This document shows, piece by piece, positions 14,769-50,348 of a stretch of DNA of 64,000 nucleotides. Position 1 is the first letter of the stretch. Every line of letters begins with the position of its first letter. Origin of the DNA: a bacterium (GTDB lineage Bacteria; UBA10199; 2-02-FULL-50-16; JAJFLM01). The notes beneath the pieces are model-generated. The model worked only from the letters and a program-made list of their open reading frames with translations. It searched no databases and was not told the origin of the DNA. The DNA lies in the NCBI GenBank assembly GCA_965216315.1, contig CBDCFN010000016.1, positions 736,001 through 800,000 on the forward strand. The letters run 5' to 3'. Made by a program: the position numbers and the translations under genes.

Positions 14769-16100
14769 ATGGGATTGGCTCAACAAAAAGAAAAAGTTTC
14801 GCTGCCGGCATGGGTTCCACTGGATCGAGGTGTTCCTAAAGAGGGGCCGCTGTGGTTGCAGGCGCGTCGAGAGGCGGCTCTGACGGCGTTGTCGGAGCGA
14901 GGGTTGCCGACCGCACAAGATGAAGAATGGCGGTATACTTCGATCGCGCCACTTCATAAGTTTGATTTTCGCCCTGATGATTCGGGCCTTTCGGTATTGC
15001 CACACGCGGATACGGATGAGTTGGGCATATCATTGGGAACGGGACCGGAATGTGTTTTTGTGAATGGCCGCTTTCGACCGAAGTTGAGCCGTCGTCTTGA
15101 GTTGCCTGCCGGAGTGCGTATTATTTCACTGAGTGAGGCTTTGAAGACAAGTGACAGTGAACTGGAAGCGCACCTTGCTCGCGCTATTGATTTAAACCAA
15201 CATCCCTTTGCAGCGCTTAACACTTGGCAGTTGGTTGATGGCGCGGTCATTGTTCTCGATAAGGGCGTCGTACTGGATGCACCGATTCATCTTCATTTTA
15301 TTGCGAATGCTCCGGAAGGAGAGATTCTTGCACAACCACGCACGATCATTGTTGCTGGAGAGAACAGTCGGGCGACCATACTCGAATCTTTCGTAGGGGC
15401 GGCGGGTCAGGTTTATTTGACGAATGCCGTTATGGAAGTTTGTTTGAAGCCGGCGTCAAAAATTAACTATTACAAACTGCAGAATGAATCGGAGCGGGCC
15501 TTTCATGTGGCGACTTTGCATGTTGAGCAGGGGACCAACAGTTGCTTCAATGCTTGCACCATTTCCATGGGGGCCGGGATCAGCCGTTATGATACCGATG
15601 TGAAGCAATCAGCCGAGGGGGCGGAATGTATCATCAACGGCTTATATCTCGCGATGGATAAGCAGCATGTGGATCACCATCTGCGCCTTGATCATCTGCA
15701 ACCTCATGGCAGTAGCCAGTTATTGTTTAAGGGCGTGCTCGATCAGCAAGGGCGCGCTGTTTATAATGGTAAGGTTGTCGTCCACGAAGGGGCCTCCGGA
15801 ACTTCGGCCGACCAGACGAATAACAACCTACTATTGTCCTCCGAGGCAGAGGCGGATCCAAAGCCGGAATTGGAAATCTATCACAATGATGTCAAATGTT
15901 CTCATGGTGCCACCGTCGGTCAGCTTGACGAAAAGGCCTTATTCTATCTGCGATCCCGCGGGATCGGTCTGGCTGAAGCGCGTCAGATATTGACCTTAGG
16001 CTTTGCGAAGCAAGTCATGGAGTCAATTGAACTTCCGCGCCTCGAAGCCTACTGCGAATGCCAATTTCTACAACGTTTGGGAGGAATGAGGCATGAATAG
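14769..16100 (+). CDS. sufD: Fe-S cluster assembly protein SufD
   Basis: EEWRYT, NNLLLS, KPELEIY.NDVKCSHGATVG, LFYLRSRGI. Confidence 0.95.
   Translation: MGLAQQKEKVSLPAWVPLDRGVPKEGPLWLQARREAALTALSERGLPTAQDEEWRYTSIAPLHKFDFRPDDSGLSVLPHADTDELGISLGTGPECVFVNGRFRPKLSRRLELPAGVRIISLSEALKTSDSELEAHLARAIDLNQHPFAALNTWQLVDGAVIVLDKGVVLDAPIHLHFIANAPEGEILAQPRTIIVAGENSRATILESFVGAAGQVYLTNAVMEVCLKPASKINYYKLQNESERAFHVATLHVEQGTNSCFNACTISMGAGISRYDTDVKQSAEGAECIINGLYLAMDKQHVDHHLRLDHLQPHGSSQLLFKGVLDQQGRAVYNGKVVVHEGASGTSADQTNNNLLLSSEAEADPKPELEIYHNDVKCSHGATVGQLDEKALFYLRSRGIGLAEARQILTLGFAKQVMESIELPRLEAYCECQFLQRLGGMRHE
16059..16099 (+). repeat. 41-bp direct repeat, copy 1 (sufD end/sufS RBS and start)
   Basis: TGCCAATTTCTACAACGTTTGGGAGGAATGAGGCATGAATA, identical to 16177-16217. 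Confidence 0.95.
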
Positions 16101-16176
16101 CGAGCGACGCGAGCGAGAGGGGGAGGCTCCGTCCGGCTTTGCCGGTGGAGGGGGCGACGCGAGCCCCTATTACGCC
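16100..16176 (+). mobile_element. 77-bp structured mini-element, copy A
   Basis: Lies between 41-bp direct repeats; homologous to the reverse complement of 48935-49010. Confidence 0.75.
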
Positions 16177-16217
16177 TGCCAATTTCTACAACGTTTGGGA
16201 GGAATGAGGCATGAATA
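16177..16217 (+). repeat. 41-bp direct repeat, copy 2
   Basis: Identical to 16059-16099; supplies the sufS RBS and ATG. Confidence 0.95.
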
Positions 16218-17461
16218 ACGCTGTGCCCTCAACGGAAAAAAAATCCTTTGATGTAGCGAGCATTCGTGAGGACTTCCCGATCTTGCAAGACCAAATGAAT
16301 GGCAAGCCACTCGTTTTTCTCGATAATGCGGCCTCTACTCAAAAGCCACAGGTCATGATCGATGCGGAGCAGGAGTTCTATGCGCATCAGTACGCTAACA
16401 TTCACCGTGGTGTTTACAAGTTAAGTGAAGCGGCAACGATAGCGTTTGAGGGGGCACGCAAAAAAGTTCAAAACTTTATCAATGCTCAAGATGCGCGCGA
16501 GATTATTTTTACAAGGTCGACGACGGAGTCGATTAACTTAGTCGCTCATTCGTATGGCCGGTCGAACATCCAGGCCGGTGATGAAGTCTTGATTACCGAA
16601 ATGGAACATCATTCTAACATCGTTCCCTGGCAACTTGTTTGTGAAGAGCAGGGAGCGACCTTAAGGGTGGTCCCGATCAATGATGCCGGTGAGGTGGCCT
16701 TAGCGGACTTTGAGCGCATGCTCACTGACAAGACCCGCATCGTAGCCATCACGCATATCTCCAATGCCTTGGGGACGATCAATCCGGTGAAAGATATCAT
16801 TGAACTAGCCCATAGCCGCAATGTTCCCGTCCTCGTCGATGGAGCCCAGGCGGCTCCCCATCTGGCCCTCGATATGCAAGCCCTGGACTGCGATTTTTAC
16901 GCGTTTTCCGGACACAAGGTTTTTGGGCCGACCGGCATCGGGGTCTTATACGGAAAATATGCGCACCTGGATGCGATGAAACCTTATCAAGGGGGTGGCG
17001 ATATGATCCAGACCGTCACCTTTGATAAGACGACTTTTAAAGAACCGCCGTATAAATTCGAAGCGGGAACGCCGAATATTGCCGGGGCGATTGCACTCGG
17101 GGTTTCACTTGATTACGTGAGCGCCATCGGCCTCGATGTGATTGCTAGTTACGAACAAGATTTACATGATTTTGCGGTGGAGAGTTTGCAACAGGTTCAA
17201 GGTCTCCGTTTGATTGGGACGGCCGCGCGGAAGACGGGACTGGTTTCTTTCGTATTAGCAGGGGCGCATCCTCATGATATCGGCACGATACTTGATAGGG
17301 AAGGAATTGCAATTCGCGCGGGGCATCACTGTGCCCAGCCTGTTATGGATCATTATAAGGTGCCTGCGACCGTGCGGGCTTCTTTTGCTTTTTATAATAC
17401 GCATGATGAAGTGACTGCCCTCGTCAAGGGGCTCGATAAAGTTCGGGAGATACTGGGATAA
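16211..17461 (+). CDS. sufS: Cysteine desulfurase SufS
   Basis: FLDNAASTQKP, EHHSNIVPWQ, FSGHKVFGPTGIG, RAGHHCAQP. Confidence 0.97.
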   Translation: MNNAVPSTEKKSFDVASIREDFPILQDQMNGKPLVFLDNAASTQKPQVMIDAEQEFYAHQYANIHRGVYKLSEAATIAFEGARKKVQNFINAQDAREIIFTRSTTESINLVAHSYGRSNIQAGDEVLITEMEHHSNIVPWQLVCEEQGATLRVVPINDAGEVALADFERMLTDKTRIVAITHISNALGTINPVKDIIELAHSRNVPVLVDGAQAAPHLALDMQALDCDFYAFSGHKVFGPTGIGVLYGKYAHLDAMKPYQGGGDMIQTVTFDKTTFKEPPYKFEAGTPNIAGAIALGVSLDYVSAIGLDVIASYEQDLHDFAVESLQQVQGLRLIGTAARKTGLVSFVLAGAHPHDIGTILDREGIAIRAGHHCAQPVMDHYKVPATVRASFAFYNTHDEVTALVKGLDKVREILG

Positions 17462-25668: not shown

Positions 25669-28257
25669 ATGGGAATTAAGCAATCACGTGTCAGTGCGGG
25701 TGTACGTGCACGCCGCCAATCAATTGTTAACTTATTAGGCCTTTTCTTGGTCGCCTTCTCACTTTCCATGGTGAGTCTGGGTCACCCGTCATATGCAGCA
25801 GAAGATGGCTGCAACGTTTATCTGAGCGAAACAGTGCCTGAACCTGGTGAGGATCCCATTATAAATCAGTGTATTTGTCATGGAACGGCGGGCGAGACCT
25901 GTCCGAGTGAGAGTGGTATCGAAGGCGGACATGATTGCCATCTGGCGGCATATTGTTGTGATGAGTTGAACTTTATTCCCAATACTTTCTTTCCTATTCC
26001 CGTATTCTGTAATTTTGAGGGCCAAGATGGCGCGTCTCCGCCCTATCTCGTTTGTGAAGATGCTAATCTACCGGGGGTTCAGGATACCTTCGGCCAATGT
26101 GATGGTTGTGGTGATGGGATTAAGGAAAATGAGGCGGATTGTTGTGACCCTGATGTCGATCCCGAGTGTGATGCGAGTGATTCATCGACCAACGTCTGTG
26201 AGGAATGTGATGACGGCAATAATGAAAGTGGAGACGGTTGTAGCGCCGATTGTCAATTAGAGGCCTGCCCTGATGGCAACTTAGATCCCGGCGAAGAGTG
26301 TGATGACAACAATATGACCAATGGAGATGGCTGTGATGACAGCTGCCAGACGGAATTTTGTGGCGACGGTATCGTTAACAACGTTACGGAAGACTGTGAT
26401 AACGGCCGTCAATGTGATGATGGCACTGATTGCACATTGAACGCCGATATCTGTACGATTATTGGGCAAGGAACATGTTCGACCTTCGCCGATGAGGACT
26501 GTGATGAAAACTGTTCAAGCGATCAATGTCCTGATGATCCGGACAAGACCGAGCCCGGTGAATGTGGCTGCGGCGTTGCTGAGACGGGTGATTCGGATGG
26601 CGATGGAGTCCACGATTGCAACGAGGACTGTGACGACGATCCGAACAAGACCGAGCCTGGTGAATGTGGCTGCGGCGTTGCTGAGACAGGTGATTCGGAT
26701 GGCGATGGAGTCCACGATTGCAACGAGGACTGTGACGACGATCCGAACAAGACCGAGCCTGGTGAATGTGGCTGCGGCGTTGCTGAGACGGGTGATTCGG
26801 ATGGCGATGGAGTCCACGATTGCAACGAGGACTGTGACGACGATCCGAACAAGACCGAGCCTGGTGAATGTGGCTGCGGCGTTGCTGAGACGGGTGATTC
26901 GGATGGCGATGGAGTCCACGATTGCAACGAGGACTGTGACGACGATCCGAACAAGACCGAGCCCGGAGAATGTGGCTGCGGCGTTGCTGAGACGGGTGAT
27001 TCGGATGGCGATGGAGTCCACGATTGCAACGAGGACTGTGACGACGATCCAAACAAGGTTGAACCGGGGATCTGTGGTTGCGGTGTCTCGGATGTCGACA
27101 GCGATGAAGACGGCACAGCGGACTGTAACGACGATTGTCCAGATGATCCTAATAAGGCCGAGCCCCTTGAATGTGGTTGCGGCGTAGCCGAGACCGGCGA
27201 CACCGACGGCGACGGTGTCCACGATTGCAACGAGGACTGTGACGACGACCCGAACAAGACCGAGCCCGGAGAATGTGGCTGTGGAACGGCTGACACGGAT
27301 TCAGACGAAGACGGTATTCCCGACTGCGATGACAACTGTATTGATACGCCGAACGAAGGGCAAGAGGACTTCGATCAGGATGGCGTCGGTGATGCCTGTG
27401 ATAACTGTGCTCCGGCTGTCCCGCAGGAAGAACCGGAATTTCCTCAGCAGGACGGGCCAACGTTGGCGATCACTATAGAAACGGATCCCAACTACAACCC
27501 CGATCAATTAGATGGGGACGAAGATGGCGTTGGTGATGTCTGCGACAATTGTTCGGAAGAGCCGAACGCGGAGCAGACAGACAGTGATGAAGACACAATA
27601 GGCGATGCCTGTGACAATTGCCCGAATGATACCAATCCTGAACAAGAGGACGGTGATGGTGACGGAACAGGGGATGCCTGTGACGCCTGTGTCGATGATC
27701 CGAACAAGACCGCGCCGGGAGTTTGCGGCTGTGGTGTTTCTGACGAAGACGATGCCGATGGCGACGGCGTGCCCGATTGCCGTGACCTGTGCCCCAATGA
27801 CGAAGTGAAGTCAGAGGCTGAGGGTCAATGCGGCTGTAATCGTCCCGAGTCGGATGATGACGGCGACGGCGTGCCGGACTGCGTCGACAACTGTCCTCCT
27901 TTGAGCAAATTGGACGAGTTCATCGACCTGGATCAGCACCCTGAGCTGAAAGAGGCCTTTGAGGCTGGAAAGTTAAACGATGTTGATACGAGCAATGCCG
28001 ATCAGTTGGATTCCAATGGAGACGGAATAGGTGATGCGTGTGAACCTCCGGAGGAGATAGAGATTGCTGACACCGACGAAGAGGAAGAGGAAGCGCCGGG
28101 TCAGCATGTGGGTGGCGGTTTAACCTGTCAATTAGTAGCGGATCAAGGGCCGGCGCCGCTAGGTGGGTATGGCTGGCTCCTGTTTATGCTGATTCCGCTC
28201 TTGGCATTGAGAACGCTGCGGCGGCCACTCATGGTGCGTGTCCCGCAGCGCCGCTAG
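25669..28257 (+). CDS. Cys-rich surface protein: myxobacterial Cys-rich repeats, thrombospondin type-3 repeats, MYXO-CTERM-like tail
   Basis: EECDDGN..SGDGCS.DC; D.DGDG.GDACDNC; C-terminal GGGLTCQL-TM-RR; start uncertain (25642 or 25669). Confidence 0.85.
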   Translation: MGIKQSRVSAGVRARRQSIVNLLGLFLVAFSLSMVSLGHPSYAAEDGCNVYLSETVPEPGEDPIINQCICHGTAGETCPSESGIEGGHDCHLAAYCCDELNFIPNTFFPIPVFCNFEGQDGASPPYLVCEDANLPGVQDTFGQCDGCGDGIKENEADCCDPDVDPECDASDSSTNVCEECDDGNNESGDGCSADCQLEACPDGNLDPGEECDDNNMTNGDGCDDSCQTEFCGDGIVNNVTEDCDNGRQCDDGTDCTLNADICTIIGQGTCSTFADEDCDENCSSDQCPDDPDKTEPGECGCGVAETGDSDGDGVHDCNEDCDDDPNKTEPGECGCGVAETGDSDGDGVHDCNEDCDDDPNKTEPGECGCGVAETGDSDGDGVHDCNEDCDDDPNKTEPGECGCGVAETGDSDGDGVHDCNEDCDDDPNKTEPGECGCGVAETGDSDGDGVHDCNEDCDDDPNKVEPGICGCGVSDVDSDEDGTADCNDDCPDDPNKAEPLECGCGVAETGDTDGDGVHDCNEDCDDDPNKTEPGECGCGTADTDSDEDGIPDCDDNCIDTPNEGQEDFDQDGVGDACDNCAPAVPQEEPEFPQQDGPTLAITIETDPNYNPDQLDGDEDGVGDVCDNCSEEPNAEQTDSDEDTIGDACDNCPNDTNPEQEDGDGDGTGDACDACVDDPNKTAPGVCGCGVSDEDDADGDGVPDCRDLCPNDEVKSEAEGQCGCNRPESDDDGDGVPDCVDNCPPLSKLDEFIDLDQHPELKEAFEAGKLNDVDTSNADQLDSNGDGIGDACEPPEEIEIADTDEEEEEAPGQHVGGGLTCQLVADQGPAPLGGYGWLLFMLIPLLALRTLRRPLMVRVPQRR
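26536..27045 (+). repeat. Five near-identical 102-bp (34-aa) tandem repeats
   Basis: Units start at 26536, 26638, 26740, 26842, 26944; unit DP(N/D)KTEPGECGCGVAETGDSDGDGVHDCNEDCDD. Confidence 0.95.
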
Positions 28258-28286
28258 AGGTTGTAATGAAGTAAAGTAGTTCCATG

Positions 28287-28321
28287 ACGGTCCCTCGGGT
28301 CAGTAAGTACCGAGGGACCGT
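28287..28321. terminator. Hairpin, possible terminator
   Basis: ACGGTCCCTCGG / CCGAGGGACCGT 12-bp stem; weak U-tract. Confidence 0.5.
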
Positions 28322-28496
28322 TGTGCTTTGCAGGCTGAAAGGGTGATATCGCGATGAGAACGGAGTGCCCTAAAAAAAGCCAAAATAATTATCAAAATGA
28401 TAATAATATCGTTTTGATAAAAAGCTCCTCCCTGGGGAACGTTAAAAAAATCTTTAAAATTCAATGTATTAGAGAAATTTTTTCCGCCCGCATATT

Positions 28497-28512
28497 TGGC
28501 ACACCTTTTGCT
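28497..28512 (+). promoter_or_regulatory. Sigma54 promoter
   Basis: TGGCAC-ACCTT-TTGCT; IHF-like ATTCAATGTATTA at 28459-28471. Confidence 0.8.
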
Positions 28513-28634
28513 TATTCTCTGGGAGGTATTGGGCAGAGATTCAGAGTGAGTCAGGCAAAGAGTCAACTTGGGGATCATGTCCGAAATGGGAAGAACAAAG
28601 ATTGAAGGCAAATTCTAAGGGAGGAATTGGGGTT

Positions 28635-30080
28635 ATGGACCATTCAAAATATATCAAAGGATTTATTAAGGGCGGCTCGGGCGTTGTAATAGGCCTGCTG
28701 CTGACGCTTTGTTTATCAAGTCAGGCCTTCGCGCAGACTGATGAAGTGCGCGAGGACTGTGGTTTCATTGAGATAGGCGATTTTTGTACCTACACCCAGG
28801 GGGGTTGGGGAACGGCTTGCGAGGGTGAAAATCCTGGTTGTCTACGTGACAGTGGTTTCTCAACCATGTTTGGCACGGGGGGACTTACGGTCGGTGGAAC
28901 GCACACGATCAATTTCAGTTCGTCTGCGGCCGTTCAAAACTTTCTTCCGCAGGGTGGGACAGCGGCGATGTTGACGCAGTCACATAATGATCCGAGTAGT
29001 ACTGAAGCCGGAGTTTTGGCGGGCCAGGTGACGGCATTGAAACTCAACGTCAATGCTTCGGATGCGCAAATCACGCAGCAAAATTCTACGGGAAGATTGG
29101 GAGGCTTACATATCGTAACGGGGCCTTTTGAAAATCTTTCGGTTGATGAATTGCTCGCCTTGGCAGAAGCGGTGCTTGGCGGTGATAGCTCAGCGTTGGA
29201 TAACTTCAATGCAAGTATCTCGGATCTGAATGATGCCGTGACGTCGGTGAATGAGAACTTTGTCGACTGTGAAGAAAATGGTGAGTATCTCGCTCAAAGT
29301 GATCGCGACCAGGATGGCATTTCCGATGAATGCGATAATTGTCCGGATGTTGCCAATGAAGGGCAAGCGGACAGTGATGAGGATGGAGTGGGTGATGCCT
29401 GTGATGAATGTCCGGAAGATCCTAATAAGGTATTAGAAGGATTTTGCGGTTGTGGCGAAGACGAAACGGACGAAGATGATGATGGGGCACCCGATTGCAT
29501 CGATCAATGCCCCGGTAATCCGGTCAAGCAAGTACCCGAAGTCTGTGGCTGTGATGCCGAAGATACGGATAATGAAAACGATGGCCAAGGGGACGGCGTC
29601 GCCGACTGCATCGATAACTGTCCTGATGTCGTGAATAGCGATCAAGCAGATAGTGACGAAGATAGCGTCGGTGATGCCTGTGACAATTGTCCTGATCGTG
29701 CCAACCCTGACCAGGCGGATAGTGACGAGGATGGTGTTGGTGATGCCTGCGATAACTGCCCCGCAGTCTCCAACGGAGACCAGCAGGATAGTGACGGCGA
29801 TGGGGTCGGTGATGCCTGCGACAACTGCCCGGATATCCACAATCCGAGTCAGGATATTGAGGCCTGCGAAGGCGACGAGACCGACGTGGCCGGCGGAAGC
29901 GATAATGGCAACGGTAACAAAAAAGAGGACGCCCAGGGTCAACATGTAGGTGGTGGCTTTACCTGTCAATTAGTCGCGGGCCAGGCGCCTTCACCACTCG
30001 GTGGTTATGGCTGGTTGCTCTTCATGACCGTGCCGCTGTTAGCGCTAAGAATGATGCGCCGTTCAGCGCGGGTTTCCTAG
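28635..30080 (+). CDS. Surface protein with TYTQGGWG domain, TSP3 repeats and MYXO-CTERM-like tail
   Basis: Signal peptide ending AFA; Q.DSD.DGVGDACDNCP repeats; GGGFTCQL-TM-RR; start reassigned to ATG 28635. Confidence 0.85.
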   Translation: MDHSKYIKGFIKGGSGVVIGLLLTLCLSSQAFAQTDEVREDCGFIEIGDFCTYTQGGWGTACEGENPGCLRDSGFSTMFGTGGLTVGGTHTINFSSSAAVQNFLPQGGTAAMLTQSHNDPSSTEAGVLAGQVTALKLNVNASDAQITQQNSTGRLGGLHIVTGPFENLSVDELLALAEAVLGGDSSALDNFNASISDLNDAVTSVNENFVDCEENGEYLAQSDRDQDGISDECDNCPDVANEGQADSDEDGVGDACDECPEDPNKVLEGFCGCGEDETDEDDDGAPDCIDQCPGNPVKQVPEVCGCDAEDTDNENDGQGDGVADCIDNCPDVVNSDQADSDEDSVGDACDNCPDRANPDQADSDEDGVGDACDNCPAVSNGDQQDSDGDGVGDACDNCPDIHNPSQDIEACEGDETDVAGGSDNGNGNKKEDAQGQHVGGGFTCQLVAGQAPSPLGGYGWLLFMTVPLLALRMMRRSARVS

Positions 30081-48279: not shown

Positions 48280-48876
48280 ATGATCGTGGCAAATCAGGGT
48301 CTGATGACCGCATCGGCGTTGGCCAGTGCAGCACTTAGCCTCCCTTATATAAAGAATATTCGTTCGGGAACCACGCCTTATGTCGTGGGGGATGTCAGAC
48401 ATACGACGGCAGAGATCGTCTTTCAGGATGAAGGTGATGCTCGCCGCGCCTCGCGGCAGCTCATGATCGATGCGTTGGATCGCATTGCTGAAGGAGAAAC
48501 TGAAGGGGTCGAGGGTTGGAGCTTTACGCGTCACGATCATCGTCCCGTCCGGTTTATTCTGCCAAATGTCAGTGAGCCCCACTCAAACCACAATATTGTG
48601 ACCGAAGCGGTCATTGCACTCGAACGGATACGAGAAGGTATGACAGTCCAGGCCGAGTCGGAATTGCCTGACAAAATGGTGATTCGTGGACCCCAAGGGG
48701 CTGCAAAGAATTTCGTAAAGCCGCGTCACGAGTTGATCATCCAATGGTTTCGGACGCCTGACAGCCGCGAAGTCCGTGCGGATATCACGATTGCGTCGCC
48801 TCTGTCCGCGCCGGAAGAGACCAGCCCGTTTTTTACGCTCGAAAGCTTACTTGTCTATCTCTCAGCAGCAAGTTAG
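48280..48876 (+). CDS. Hypothetical protein
   Basis: 198 aa ORF, AGGAG RBS, uncharged N-terminus. Confidence 0.6.
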   Translation: MIVANQGLMTASALASAALSLPYIKNIRSGTTPYVVGDVRHTTAEIVFQDEGDARRASRQLMIDALDRIAEGETEGVEGWSFTRHDHRPVRFILPNVSEPHSNHNIVTEAVIALERIREGMTVQAESELPDKMVIRGPQGAAKNFVKPRHELIIQWFRTPDSREVRADITIASPLSAPEETSPFFTLESLLVYLSAAS

Positions 48877-48881
48877 ATGGA

Positions 48882-48934
48882 AATATGGAGACGAGGGGGA
48901 TCGAACCCCTGACCTCGTGAATGCCATTCACGCG
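48882..48934 (-). repeat. 53-bp duplicate of the tRNA-Ala 3' portion plus 4 flanking nt
   Basis: Identical to 49128-49180. Confidence 0.95.
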
Positions 48935-49010
48935 AGCATCAAAGGGGCTTGCGTCGCCCCCTCCAGAAGCAAAGCTCCTGGAGCCTCCCCCTCTCGCTCA
49001 CGTTGTTCGC
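48935..49010 (-). mobile_element. 76-bp structured mini-element, copy B
   Basis: Reverse complement aligns end to end with 16100-16176 and abuts the duplicated segment. Confidence 0.75.
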
Positions 49011-49131
49011 TAAAGAGCGCGTGATAATTTAAAAAAAAGTGATGAAACGATGGGGGGATGTAAGGGGGGAGAGAGTTTTTCTCACCCCCTTACTATAGCT
49101 AAACGGAAGCTGTGCTTTCGTTTAGCGAATA

Positions 49132-49204
49132 TGGAGACGAGGGGGATCGAACCCCTGACCTCGTGAATGCCATTCACGCGCTCTCCCAACTGAGCTACGT
49201 CCCC
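49132..49204 (-). tRNA. tRNA-Ala (GGC); CCA not encoded
   Basis: GGGGACGTAGCTCAGTTGGGAGAGCG...GGC anticodon...GGTTCGATCC; G3:U70 pair. Confidence 0.95.
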
Positions 49205-49280
49205 TCAATTTATCTAAGAATTACGGGCAAAATTGAATATTGTCAATATAAGGGGCAATTCTCTATGTTAGGTGGCAGTT

Positions 49281-50348
49281 ATGACGAAGCAAAACATCTA
49301 TGACCTGAGTATGCCAGCCCTTGAGGGATGGGTTCATGCACATGGGTTAAAACCCTATGCCGCGATTCAGTTGATTCAGTGGCTCTACCAAAAGCGCGTT
49401 CATGCTTTTGCCGAGATGACCAATCTTTCCAAGGACGCGCGTGAGCTACTCGAAAATTCATTCGAATTAAGAACAGCCGAGATTGTCGATCGTTCCGTGT
49501 CGACGGATAGCTCGGTTAAGTTTGTACTGCGTCTGCATGATGAAGCCTTGATTGAGAGTGTGCTGATGCCGCAGACCCAACGGATTACTCTCTGTGTTTC
49601 GAGCCAAGTCGGTTGTGCAATGGGCTGTCGTTTTTGCAAAACCGCTGAAATGAAGTTGGTGCGTAATCTCACGCAAGGGGAGATTATTGCCCAAGTCATG
49701 GTGGCCATTCGATTCTTGGAATCCGAGGATCCGGTGGCGGCCGCGTTGTTAGCGGAATCGACCTGCGACCATGTTTCGAATTTGGTTTTTATGGGGATGG
49801 GGGAGCCTCTCCATAATTTGAGGCCGGTAGTTGATAGTATCCATCTGTTGTTGGAGGATCGCGCGTTTAATTTCTCGAGGAGAAAAATTACGGTTTCAAC
49901 TTCCGGTTTAGCGCCGGAAATACGCGAATTCGCCGAGGCCGTGCCGGTTAAGTTGGCCGTGTCATTGAATGCGACGAATGATGCCTTGCGTACGGAAATT
50001 ATGCCGATCAATAAACGGTATGATTTGGCCGAGTTGATGGCGGCCTGTCGTGACTATGCAAAGATACGTGATGGGGTGGTCACCTTTGAGTATGTCATGC
50101 TTAAGGATGTCAATGATACGCCTGAGCATGCCGCCGAGCTCGTGAGATTGATTGCGCACACGCCCTGTAAGATCAATTTGATCCCGTTTAATGACTATCC
50201 CGAGTCTCCTTATCAGCGACCGAGTGAAGCGAGTCTGATTGCCTTTCATCACTATCTCGCGGATCGCGATTTTCAGGTGAATATCCGGTATAGCAAGGGA
50301 TTAGATGTCTTGGCTGCCTGTGGGCAGCTTGCGGTCAAGGCCAGTTAG
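49281..50348 (+). CDS. rlmN: 23S rRNA/tRNA m2A methyltransferase RlmN
   Basis: CVSSQVGCAMGCRFC, MGMGEP, AACGQL; start 49272 or 49281. Confidence 0.95.
   Translation: MTKQNIYDLSMPALEGWVHAHGLKPYAAIQLIQWLYQKRVHAFAEMTNLSKDARELLENSFELRTAEIVDRSVSTDSSVKFVLRLHDEALIESVLMPQTQRITLCVSSQVGCAMGCRFCKTAEMKLVRNLTQGEIIAQVMVAIRFLESEDPVAAALLAESTCDHVSNLVFMGMGEPLHNLRPVVDSIHLLLEDRAFNFSRRKITVSTSGLAPEIREFAEAVPVKLAVSLNATNDALRTEIMPINKRYDLAELMAACRDYAKIRDGVVTFEYVMLKDVNDTPEHAAELVRLIAHTPCKINLIPFNDYPESPYQRPSEASLIAFHHYLADRDFQVNIRYSKGLDVLAACGQLAVKAS

Follow-up and report, generated by a model that had tools for sequence, protein, structure and literature searches.

The DNA analysed here, referred to throughout as the window, comprises 64,000 nucleotides of contig CBDCFN010000016.1 (assembly GCA_965216315.1, positions 736,001 to 800,000, forward strand) from a bacterium of the GTDB lineage UBA10199. 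On the minus strand of the window an intact tRNA-Ala(GGC) gene and the four nucleotides TATT are followed by an insert of 193 bp, by an exact repeat of the last 49 nt of the tRNA and TATT, by 5 nt and then by the stop codon of a convergent open reading frame (ORF). The insert ends in a short structured repeat, here named E, which belongs to a family with hosts in several phyla. A minority of E copies lie, as this one does, between an intact gene and a truncated second copy of the end of that same gene, and where such repeats are coding the two copies differ almost exclusively by synonymous changes. The coordinates of the principal features are collected in Table 1; plain coordinates are window positions, G000 is the genome of the window (2.96 Mb, 16 contigs, a metagenome-type assembly), other G numbers are relatives, and C and L numbers denote contigs and loci.

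Table 1. Features of the tRNA-Ala(GGC) and suf sites and of related loci in G000 and G034.
Feature	Position	Strand	Basis
Intact tRNA-Ala(GGC) gene	49132..49204	-	ARAGORN; Rfam tRNA model, 64.5 bits
Repeat copy 1 (DR1), tRNA positions 25-73 and TATT, within intact gene	49128..49180	-	Repeat search, 53 nt, 100% identity
M, member of a two-hairpin repeat family	49043..49127 (85 nt)	-	Genome BLAST
M-E spacer, T-run and unique sequence	49013..49042 (30 nt)	-	Sequence; BLAST
E: hairpin 1, purine-rich linker, hairpin 2 (variable, covarying), hairpin 3 (invariant), tail	48935..49012 (78 nt)	-	Genome copies, covariation, predicted fold
E tail at tRNA-Ala(GGC), 9 nt	48935-48943	-	
Repeat copy 2 (DR2), truncated tRNA 3′ part and TATT, abutting E tail	48882..48934	-	Repeat search
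Convergent 198-aa ORF without Pfam family, stop codon 5 nt from DR2	48280..48876	+	
RlmN-like radical SAM gene, divergent from tRNA-Ala(GGC)	49272..50348	+	Pfam RlmN_N and Radical_SAM
SUFBD_core gene	14769-16100		Pfam
suf repeat copy 1, SUFBD_core gene end overlapping duplicated sufS start	16059..16099	+	
E copy at suf, 77 nt, with 9-nt tail (16168-16176)	16100..16176	+	
suf repeat copy 2, truncated SUFBD_core end with native ribosome-binding site and sufS start	16177..16217	+	
Class-V aminotransferase (sufS-like) gene	16211-17461		Pfam
Arginyl-tRNA synthetase gene with in-frame E (L213)	G000:C16:1397105-1398871		
MiaB-like radical SAM enzyme gene with in-frame E (L214)	G000:C16:1355407-1356879		
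Quinolinate phosphoribosyltransferase gene with in-frame E, reverse orientation (L215)	G000:C15:440842-441777		
Nitrite/sulfite reductase gene with in-frame E (L216)	G000:C15:424491-426602		
Tyrosine integrase ORF directly after tRNA-Ala(GGC) in G034 (L227)	G034:C13:1851-2993		PF00589, 121 bits
Partial tRNA copy in G034, 48 nt, reaching tRNA 3′ end, on another contig (L226)	G034:C241:10671-10718		

Each of the two 53-nt copies runs from tRNA position 25 to the 3′ end of the tRNA and on through TATT; they are 100% identical, lie 246 nt apart from start to start and enclose 193 bp (48935-49127). The flanks of 200 random genome positions shared a longest word of 7-13 nt in 199 instances and of 41 nt in one, and in local alignments the 99th percentile over 400 random positions was 13.5, against a score of 53 at the tRNA-Ala(GGC) locus. 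Chance is ruled out as the origin of the repeat, and ARAGORN, the repeat search and these random controls together confirm the intact tRNA, the perfect 53-bp repeat with TATT and the 193-bp gap given in a preliminary description of this sequence. That description had the insert ending in a mini-element: E does stand at its end, with 78 nt by our boundaries, but the other 115 of the 193 bp are not E, being M and a 30-nt spacer that the tRNA-Ala(CGC) site shares at about 90% by BLAST. What looked like a cargo is a pair of repeats with no remnant of genes. The convergent 198-aa ORF, with its stop codon so close to DR2, marks the native flank. A public short-read contig of 178 nt connects the 5′ part of E with M and repeat copy 1 and shows zero differences. 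Among the public k-mer contigs listed, which break at repeats, none bridges 48912-48942, and the joint between the E tail and repeat copy 2 (48934/48935) is therefore carried by the assembly; nor does any of them contain the 246-nt skip of an empty allele, from which, given the same breakage, no absence can be claimed. An exact 28-nt metagenome scan for the tRNA end joined to the native flank gave 0 matches. Between 48000 and 50000, cmscan at E-values up to 10 reported tRNA only, besides weak tmRNA and microRNA-like matches on tRNA parts and M.

E occurs at 41 BLAST loci in G000, of which 39 keep the conserved 3′ part. Its exact core pattern is present in 28 of the 61 genomes of the class, with up to 33 exact matches per genome, and a scan of one genome per species gave at least 118 E loci among the matches listed. 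The metagenome-assembled genomes among these are labelled Nitrospirota, Syntrophorhabdus, Syntrophus, Deltaproteobacteria, Bdellovibrionales, Acidobacteria and Ignavibacteriales, together with a Patescibacteria-group bin; the isolate Syntrophorhabdus aromaticivorans UI is also listed, with at least one copy. In an alignment of 124 different copies from relatives and other phyla, the purine-rich linker and the third hairpin are invariant and the stems of the two other hairpins vary. The conserved core measures about 62 nt, is preceded by GA in all 124 copies and has a variable hairpin on its 5′ side in most of them. Folding energy on its own is not significant (z = -1.3), and support for the structure comes instead from covariation: the three-hairpin structure holds 183 double-change cells, located in hairpins 1 and 2, compared with 50 ± 5 after shuffling and no more than 51 after sliding of the partners. 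G-T wobble pairs outnumber A-C combinations by 42 to 13 across the 124 copies, and tandem G-A pairs occur in hairpin 1 of 73 of them, which together argue that the fold belongs to one strand, as RNA or single-stranded DNA. The folding strand is the G-rich strand of the replichore in 26 of the 39 G000 copies. Neither a repeat search nor the 124-copy alignment revealed an inverted repeat bounding E. E matches no Rfam family, a literature search for its core motifs did not find them in print, and a word search on Nitrospira and Syntrophorhabdus repeats yielded nothing relevant; within the Rfam and paper searches, the E family and its gene-end repeats appear to be undescribed.

A long direct repeat flanks nine of the 39 E copies in G000, with scores of 29-63. 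The other 30 have none: 28 score 11.5 or less, and two, at 43 and 15, reflect repeated M at C16:1708 kb. No decayed intermediate class separates repeat-bearing from repeat-free copies. Two of the nine loci are tRNA-Ala(GGC) and tRNA-Ala(CGC), and one is the sufD/sufS border. The 3′ end is involved at nuoC and at a uracil-DNA glycosylase-like gene (UDG, named by sequence), and the 5′ end at ssrA, at hisF (so named from its N-terminus), at a peptidase-like gene and at one more gene. In the relatives, 4 to 5 of 29 E copies bear a repeat (at tRNA-Val, tRNA-Pro, tRNA-Arg, argG and one other gene), the tRNA-Ala(GGC) locus of G008 is likewise repeat-bearing, and in a cross-phylum set the proportion is 11 of 110. 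Cases outside G000 thus total 15 to 16, and repeat lengths span 17-135 nt.

The geometry of these loci is uniform. Every case examined closely has the same layout: the intact gene with copy 1 comes first, then a spacer leads to E, whose short tail passes into the truncated copy 2 and on to the native flank. Pooled counts cover 26 repeat cases. Copy 1 and E are separated by anything from 0 to about 135 nt, whereas the truncated copy begins 7-12 nt past hairpin 3 in 24 of the 26 (8-12 nt in all nine G000 cases). Before the start of the repeat in the intact copy, G stands at position -3 in 21 of the 26 and C never at -1 or -2, a joint motif that we summarise as G-R-D. Genes for tRNA or tmRNA account for eight of the 26; in five of the seven tRNA cases the repeat begins at tRNA position 25-27, directly after the D-arm AGAG, and extends to or past the 3′ end. 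The element-then-duplicate arrangement that the preliminary description had also noticed at the suf site, where an exact 41-nt repeat surrounds E, the intactness of the host gene and the variable repeat length, which reaches from 17 to about 135 nt, are thus borne out, while its view that the targets share no sequence was too strong, a weak target motif being present. At two loci the layout is embellished. At L020 (G008:C4), the T-arm region of the truncated tRNA-Arg(CCT) copy behind E is interrupted by another insertion, of about 60 nt, and at L097 the truncated copy of the rplL end is succeeded by a third, partial one.

Where the repeats are coding, the two copies can be compared codon by codon. 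Nine pairs comprise 149 codons, of which 37 differ; 36 of the 37 are synonymous and only one is non-synonymous. Of 40 nucleotide differences, 34 fall at third codon positions. The synonymous excess has a P of about 3e-19 against an expectation of 28% synonymous changes, and even if decay in place is combined with synonymous changes in the working copy, roughly 40% would be expected to be synonymous, compared with the 97% observed. The two copies are hence different alleles and not a gene and its duplicate decaying in place; judged by this codon pattern, both evolved as working gene ends in different lineages. The earlier proposal that the element makes the duplication survives only in part, in that the repeat is tied to E in G000, in the relatives and across phyla, but its formation as a copy of the target at insertion does not fit the protein-coding cases, with their synonymous codons. 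In the nuoC pair, nine of 17 codons differ (stop codon included), all nine synonymously, and both copies encode the same 16 residues; both also carry a lineage-specific threonine (T) which is lacking in G001, G031 and G038. At argG, rplL and UDG, a perfect block of 37-44 nt gives way to heavily recoded terminal codons. Similarity ends at the ATG in all three gene-5′-end cases, where a fresh Shine-Dalgarno sequence adjoins E; at L016 and suf it reaches no further than the stop codon. Within G000 and within G008 the spacers are unique, and the flanks of the 39 G000 copies contain no distant gene fragment, distant matches arising only via other repeat families and tRNA paralogs. Gene-end pieces therefore occur only beside their own gene, as homology would dictate.

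Sites without the element were found at three loci. The check for empty tRNA-Ala sites, suggested by the preliminary description, returned 10 empty sites among 11 relatives, with no E, M or second tRNA piece within 300 nt of tRNA-Ala(GGC). In G008 the site is filled, and the repeat there, about 125 nt long, takes in an M-like trailer of its own. The nuoC-nuoD border is devoid of E in G001, G031 and G038. Within the assembly itself, contig C2 (2222 nt) is an alternative ssrA allele lacking M, E and the repeat, with 96% identity over ssrA and 77% over the flank. Its ssrA 5′ end continues straight into the flank that, on the main contig, follows the truncated copy, and it has AA like that truncated copy where the working copy has GG. 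The C2 allele indicates that the bin holds more than one strain at the ssrA locus.

From the observed geometry, fixed 3′ joint, target motif, two-allele coding repeats and empty sites in relatives, we arrive at a reading that we consider the best of those available and favour tentatively: E arrives together with a gene end from a donor, the 3′ end of E is attached within the resident gene, and the opposite side is settled by homology. On this model E would be a mobile mini-element recognised as a folded single strand by machinery acting in trans, and its active end would be the 3′ end, comprising the invariant hairpin 3 and the roughly 9-nt tail. E would enter together with the gene end, from a relative or a sister allele in which E already adjoins the gene in question. 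In a first step, the 3′ end of E would be joined to the recipient strand just past G-R-D, 17-135 nt inside the recipient gene end. The 5′ side, for which no element-specific joint is envisaged, would then be settled by in-register homologous pairing of the carried gene end with the resident gene. The product would be an intact gene with donor-derived terminal codons and adjacent untranslated sequence, followed by E, the truncated resident end and the native flank; in the tRNA-Ala case, the tRNA 3′ part, M and E would make up what was carried in. We infer that the chemistry is single-stranded, which way the transfer ran and in what order the steps occurred. More guardedly still, one might see in E the first example of a protein-less, cross-phylum element that spreads with a conserved gene end as its built-in homology arm, using an element-specific single-strand joint at G-R-D at one end and host recombination at the other. 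It would follow, and can be entertained with the same reserve, that the target gene is never lost, that E hops between distant lineages at orthologous gene borders and that it lives in frame in essential proteins. We prefer arrival with a donor gene end to duplication of the target on the grounds that one event then gives both E and a foreign gene end, that gene-end fragments occur only beside their own gene, and that imports from E-less donors should erase E and not recode one copy.

Several observations weigh against this preference. At nuoC, the intact copy has five synonymous states in common with G001 and the truncated copy two, which, small as these counts are, is the reverse of a simple assignment of donor and resident. 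Several repeats are perfect over non-coding sequence, for about 125 nt at L008, for 135 nt at L014 and at the tRNA sites, and a target-derived copy explains this equally well. At both tRNA-Ala sites, copy 1 matches its own tRNA perfectly, yet M and E are only about 90% alike between the two; a donor at the paralogous site would leave a hybrid tRNA, and the donor must consequently be the orthologous locus of another strain, of which no instance was seen for tRNA-Ala. The perfect blocks of 37-44 nt beside recoded codons would require either a crossover inside copy 1 or gap filling from the recipient. The orientation bias of E is weak (one-sided binomial about 0.03). Finally, no enzyme for E was found with one Y1 protein and PF00589 as the candidates: in a survey with one G000 Y1 protein as query, the Y1 (IS200-like) family was not found in nine of the 28 E genomes, G008 included, and was found in 29 of the 33 genomes without E. 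On this phyletic pattern the Y1 family of the query is rejected as the mobiliser of E, and E does not lie near the Y1 gene. Among 73 ORFs adjoining E in relatives, one is Xer-like and none is a transposase, the others being housekeeping or of unknown type. A classical transposon of the DDE/MITE type can likewise be discarded, there being no inverted ends and the repeats being long and variable (17-135 nt). Separately, the single IS200-like Y1 gene (247 aa), at L175 (G000:C16:1212400-1213950), has behind it, almost in tandem, a second copy of roughly its last 40 codons with the downstream sequence; the unit measures about 330 nt, and no E is nearby.

The identity of the two copies means that the tRNA-Ala(GGC) site does not separate the models. 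The most substantial rival, which we nevertheless regard as unlikely, is a long and variable target-site duplication, in which E inserts between nicks 17-135 nt apart, the gap is filled, and later exchange with E-less alleles overwrites one copy, stopping at the heterology presented by E; with it, E would become the small-element counterpart of insertion with long target duplication, a status we think equally doubtful. Perfect or near-perfect repeats that include non-coding sequence, at the tRNA sites, L008, L014, L025, L067 and L131, speak for this account, as does a truncated copy that exactly abuts the E tail, and identity on the E-tail side with distal divergence could reflect a flank import that ended inside copy 2. 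There is also precedent in PMC2853133, with repeats of 46-423 bp and IS1630 duplications of 19-26 bp. Set against this, a later exchange would have to be assumed for each of seven of the nine coding pairs, yet neutral decay in the truncated copies is near zero (1/37), and import of an E-less allele would more easily delete E. The unique, locus-specific spacer would have to be part of the insert, yet it resembles the gene's own untranslated region, Shine-Dalgarno sequence or recoded last codons, and untargeted insertion does not predict that M followed by E should occur only beside tRNA-Ala-like, tmRNA and tRNA-Leu genes. We know of no characterised transposase with which a stagger varying over 17-135 nt would fit. 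An assembly artefact, through a strain switch or repeat collapse at E, is scarcely credible. The assembly is indeed of metagenome type, in 16 contigs with at least one alternative allele (C2), and no listed public contig bridges the joint of E tail and copy 2, but the same geometry recurs at 26 loci in many independent assemblies, the difference-free 178-nt public contig spans E, M and copy 1, the structure is found again at tRNA-Ala(CGC), there with the sequence of that tRNA, and strain switching cannot yield a perfect repeat of part of a tRNA.

It is improbable that E is a miniature integrative element moved in trans by a tyrosine recombinase, with E as the bound arm, the repeat as the attL/attR identity and the copy on the intact side as the surrogate end of attP. 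Surrogate ends with synonymous differences, in which identity is kept near the crossover, are known of attP-type elements, and the start of five of the seven tRNA repeats at position 25-27 corresponds to the classic anticodon-arm sublocation. A genuine integrase island does lie at tRNA-Ala(GGC) in G034, with a 48-nt partial tRNA copy; the preliminary description had named, as what would refute its view, relatives that carry such an island together with an independent insertion of the element, and the G034 island, which is without E, bears this out by half. As that description also had it, there is no integrase in the 193-bp insert, which has no ORF, or within about 5 kb, where a Pfam scan of ORFs gave no PF00589 and matched RlmN, Na/H exchanger, deaminase, MgsA and phosphorylase. 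A resident recombinase acting in trans may exist in G000, which has five PF00589 matches, none of them near an E repeat locus; G008 (five repeat cases, 98% completeness) and G035 (one case) have only two matches each, of 304-308 aa, the size of XerC/XerD. One enzyme would have to accept at least nine unrelated cores in G000 that have only the G-R-D preference in common, and most E copies have no repeat, some of them lying in frame within genes. A lost integrase island with a chance E is out as a general answer, given the fixed distance between E and copy in 24 of the 26 cases and the exclusively Xer-sized matches in G008 and G035. An att-type origin may apply to the tRNA-Ala(GGC) site alone; it leaves the family-wide geometry unexplained. 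Unequal crossover within E, between two alleles with independent E insertions a few dozen nucleotides apart, so that the interval is duplicated and the reciprocal deletion lost, would produce two-allele repeats with no special enzyme, and it draws on the recurrence of E after the SUFBD_core ORF in G000 and G026, on the tolerance of E inside coding sequence and on the likeness of the nuoC spacer to a diverged nuoD start. It requires, however, an allele with E inside a tRNA at position 25, which would not be viable, and the predicted homology of the spacer to the flank after copy 2 fails at the tRNA-Ala site and at the perfect repeats of L008, L014 and L016, so that we reject it as a general explanation and consider it decidedly improbable overall. 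Still less probable is a two-step history in which E first settled in frame within the terminal codons, the truncated copy long serving as the real end, before an intact end without E was patched in upstream. In-frame E in four other genes, absent from the ArgS and MiaB orthologs of relatives, makes the first step conceivable, and such a history would explain both the purifying selection on the truncated copy and the mini-ORFs that cross E into that copy in the native frame. It is inapplicable to the eight of 26 cases at tRNA or tmRNA genes, needs two rare events per locus and leaves unexplained the fresh Shine-Dalgarno sequences and a patch that always ends at the 5′ side of E.

E does not have the complete defining set of any family compared. 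Among described phenomena, insertion with long target duplication comes closest (Nobusato et al. 2000, cited in Furuta, Abe and Kobayashi 2010, PMC2853133). It concerns restriction-modification genes and is of unexplained mechanism; in PMC2853133, repeats of 46-423 bp flank inserts without mobility genes, some overlap gene 3′ ends, and IS1630 is cited for duplications of 19-26 bp. E resembles these insertions in its long variable repeats, in the lack of a transposase or integrase, in a target that is single-copy in insert-free strains and in the overlap with gene 3′ ends. Repeats longer than 30 bp, an insert without a mobility gene and a single-copy target in E-less genomes are all found here, whereas derivation of both repeat copies from the target fails in the coding cases, with their 36 of 37 synonymous codons. 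The inserts of PMC2853133 are kilobase-sized sets of restriction-modification genes, and here they are 75-260 nt without a gene; E is a conserved structured element at a fixed distance from one copy, with a G-R-D joint, and the coding repeats are two alleles, whereas the repeats described there are near-identical to the target.

Other systems are similar in part. With tyrosine-integrase islands E has in common a repeat from the anticodon arm to the tRNA 3′ end and an element-borne end that restores the gene with mostly synonymous differences, as in phage 21 and e14 in icd, where attP carries a surrogate gene end; it differs in the absence of integrase and cargo and in its many unrelated targets. 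In homology-facilitated illegitimate recombination during natural transformation, one side is likewise anchored by homology and the other joined without it, but with E the joint is always at the same end and at a preferred motif, and the outcome is always duplication and never deletion. Rickettsia palindromic elements are short repeats that lie in frame within conserved protein genes and are translated as a surface insert. In-frame E, with its 25 or so residues, resembles them, but it appears to be a different sequence family, with hosts of several phyla, and to our knowledge gene-end duplications are not a described feature of the Rickettsia elements. Finally, the absence of terminal inverted repeats and the imperfect hairpins on one strand recall IS200/IS605-type single-strand elements and their gene-less derivatives, REP/RAYT systems and rolling-circle 3′ ends, a field to which PMC3201880, PMC5027513 and PMC6006769 belong. 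Further resemblances are an end about 10 nt past a subterminal hairpin, a short target motif and a mild bias of the folding strand towards the lagging-strand template. Elements of these kinds, however, are known to insert without duplication, whereas nine of the 39 E copies have long repeats, Y1 does not track E and the 5′ boundary of E is not fixed.

Beyond the gene-end repeats, E shows several further relationships with coding sequence. The four G000 genes that contain it in frame are listed in Table 1; the insertion adds about 25 residues and is missing from all four ArgS and all five MiaB orthologs examined in relatives. At suf, the first G of E completes the TAG stop codon of the SUFBD_core gene, and upstream genes elsewhere often terminate with TAG at the 5′ edge of E in the same way. 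A mini-ORF (16093-16218) crosses E there, reaches the truncated end in the native frame and stops at the native stop before sufS; another of the same kind is found at nuoC-nuoD (G000:C16, about 1841560-1841650), with the native stop before nuoD. Both begin at or over the stop codon of the upstream gene, and such read-through may keep translational coupling. In G026, which belongs to a distant family, E lies directly after the SUFBD_core ORF at the same junction as in suf. At eight E copies in G000 (for example C15:86904, C16:505684, C16:564319 and C16:1941112), an ORF running towards E on the opposite strand terminates within the tail, 0-3 nt from hairpin 3, and E thus provides its stop codon. 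An inverted pair of E copies flanks cytochrome oxidase genes at C16 1.272-1.275 Mb, and two copies lie 146-166 nt apart in L079 and in G049 (G049:C26:20044-20229).

M, the companion of E at the tRNA-Ala(GGC) site, is present at 17 loci in G000 by BLAST, 11 of them no more than 100 nt from a tRNA or tmRNA gene on either side, and its 5′ end faces the tRNA end at the loci inspected. M is followed by E some 47 nt on beside tRNA-Ala(GGC), tRNA-Ala(CGC), tRNA-Ala(TGC), ssrA and tRNA-Leu. It has no Rfam family match, and the trailer of tRNA-Ala in G001 has a two-hairpin layout that resembles it. A third short repeat family, of about 40 nt, is found in the flanks of two E copies (C15:87003-87038 and C16:391694-391729) and at more than 20 other loci. 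Elsewhere in the window, 26418-29828 holds long tandem coding arrays of 102-nt and 69-78-nt units, rich in Asp, Gly and Cys, which we take to resemble thrombospondin type 3 calcium-binding repeats. As to the immediate neighbourhood of the tRNA, G038 and G017 (L004, L011) have rlmN downstream of tRNA-Ala(GGC) in the same orientation, and G000 has it upstream and divergent, a difference in placement indicating that the tRNA segment of G000 is inverted relative to those relatives.

If the arrival of E with a donor gene end is correct, it would constitute a mode of DNA insertion that uses neither a transposase-style target duplication nor an integrase, and it would offer a mechanism for the unexplained insertions with long target duplication. 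E would also serve as a compact marker for inter-lineage recombination joints in uncultured bacteria. In annotation, it accounts for pseudo-copies of parts of tRNAs, tmRNAs and gene ends, which might else be misread as remnants of lost islands, and its in-frame copies mean that short repeats inside protein genes are not confined to Rickettsia. The E family and its gene-end repeats are worth dedicated study.

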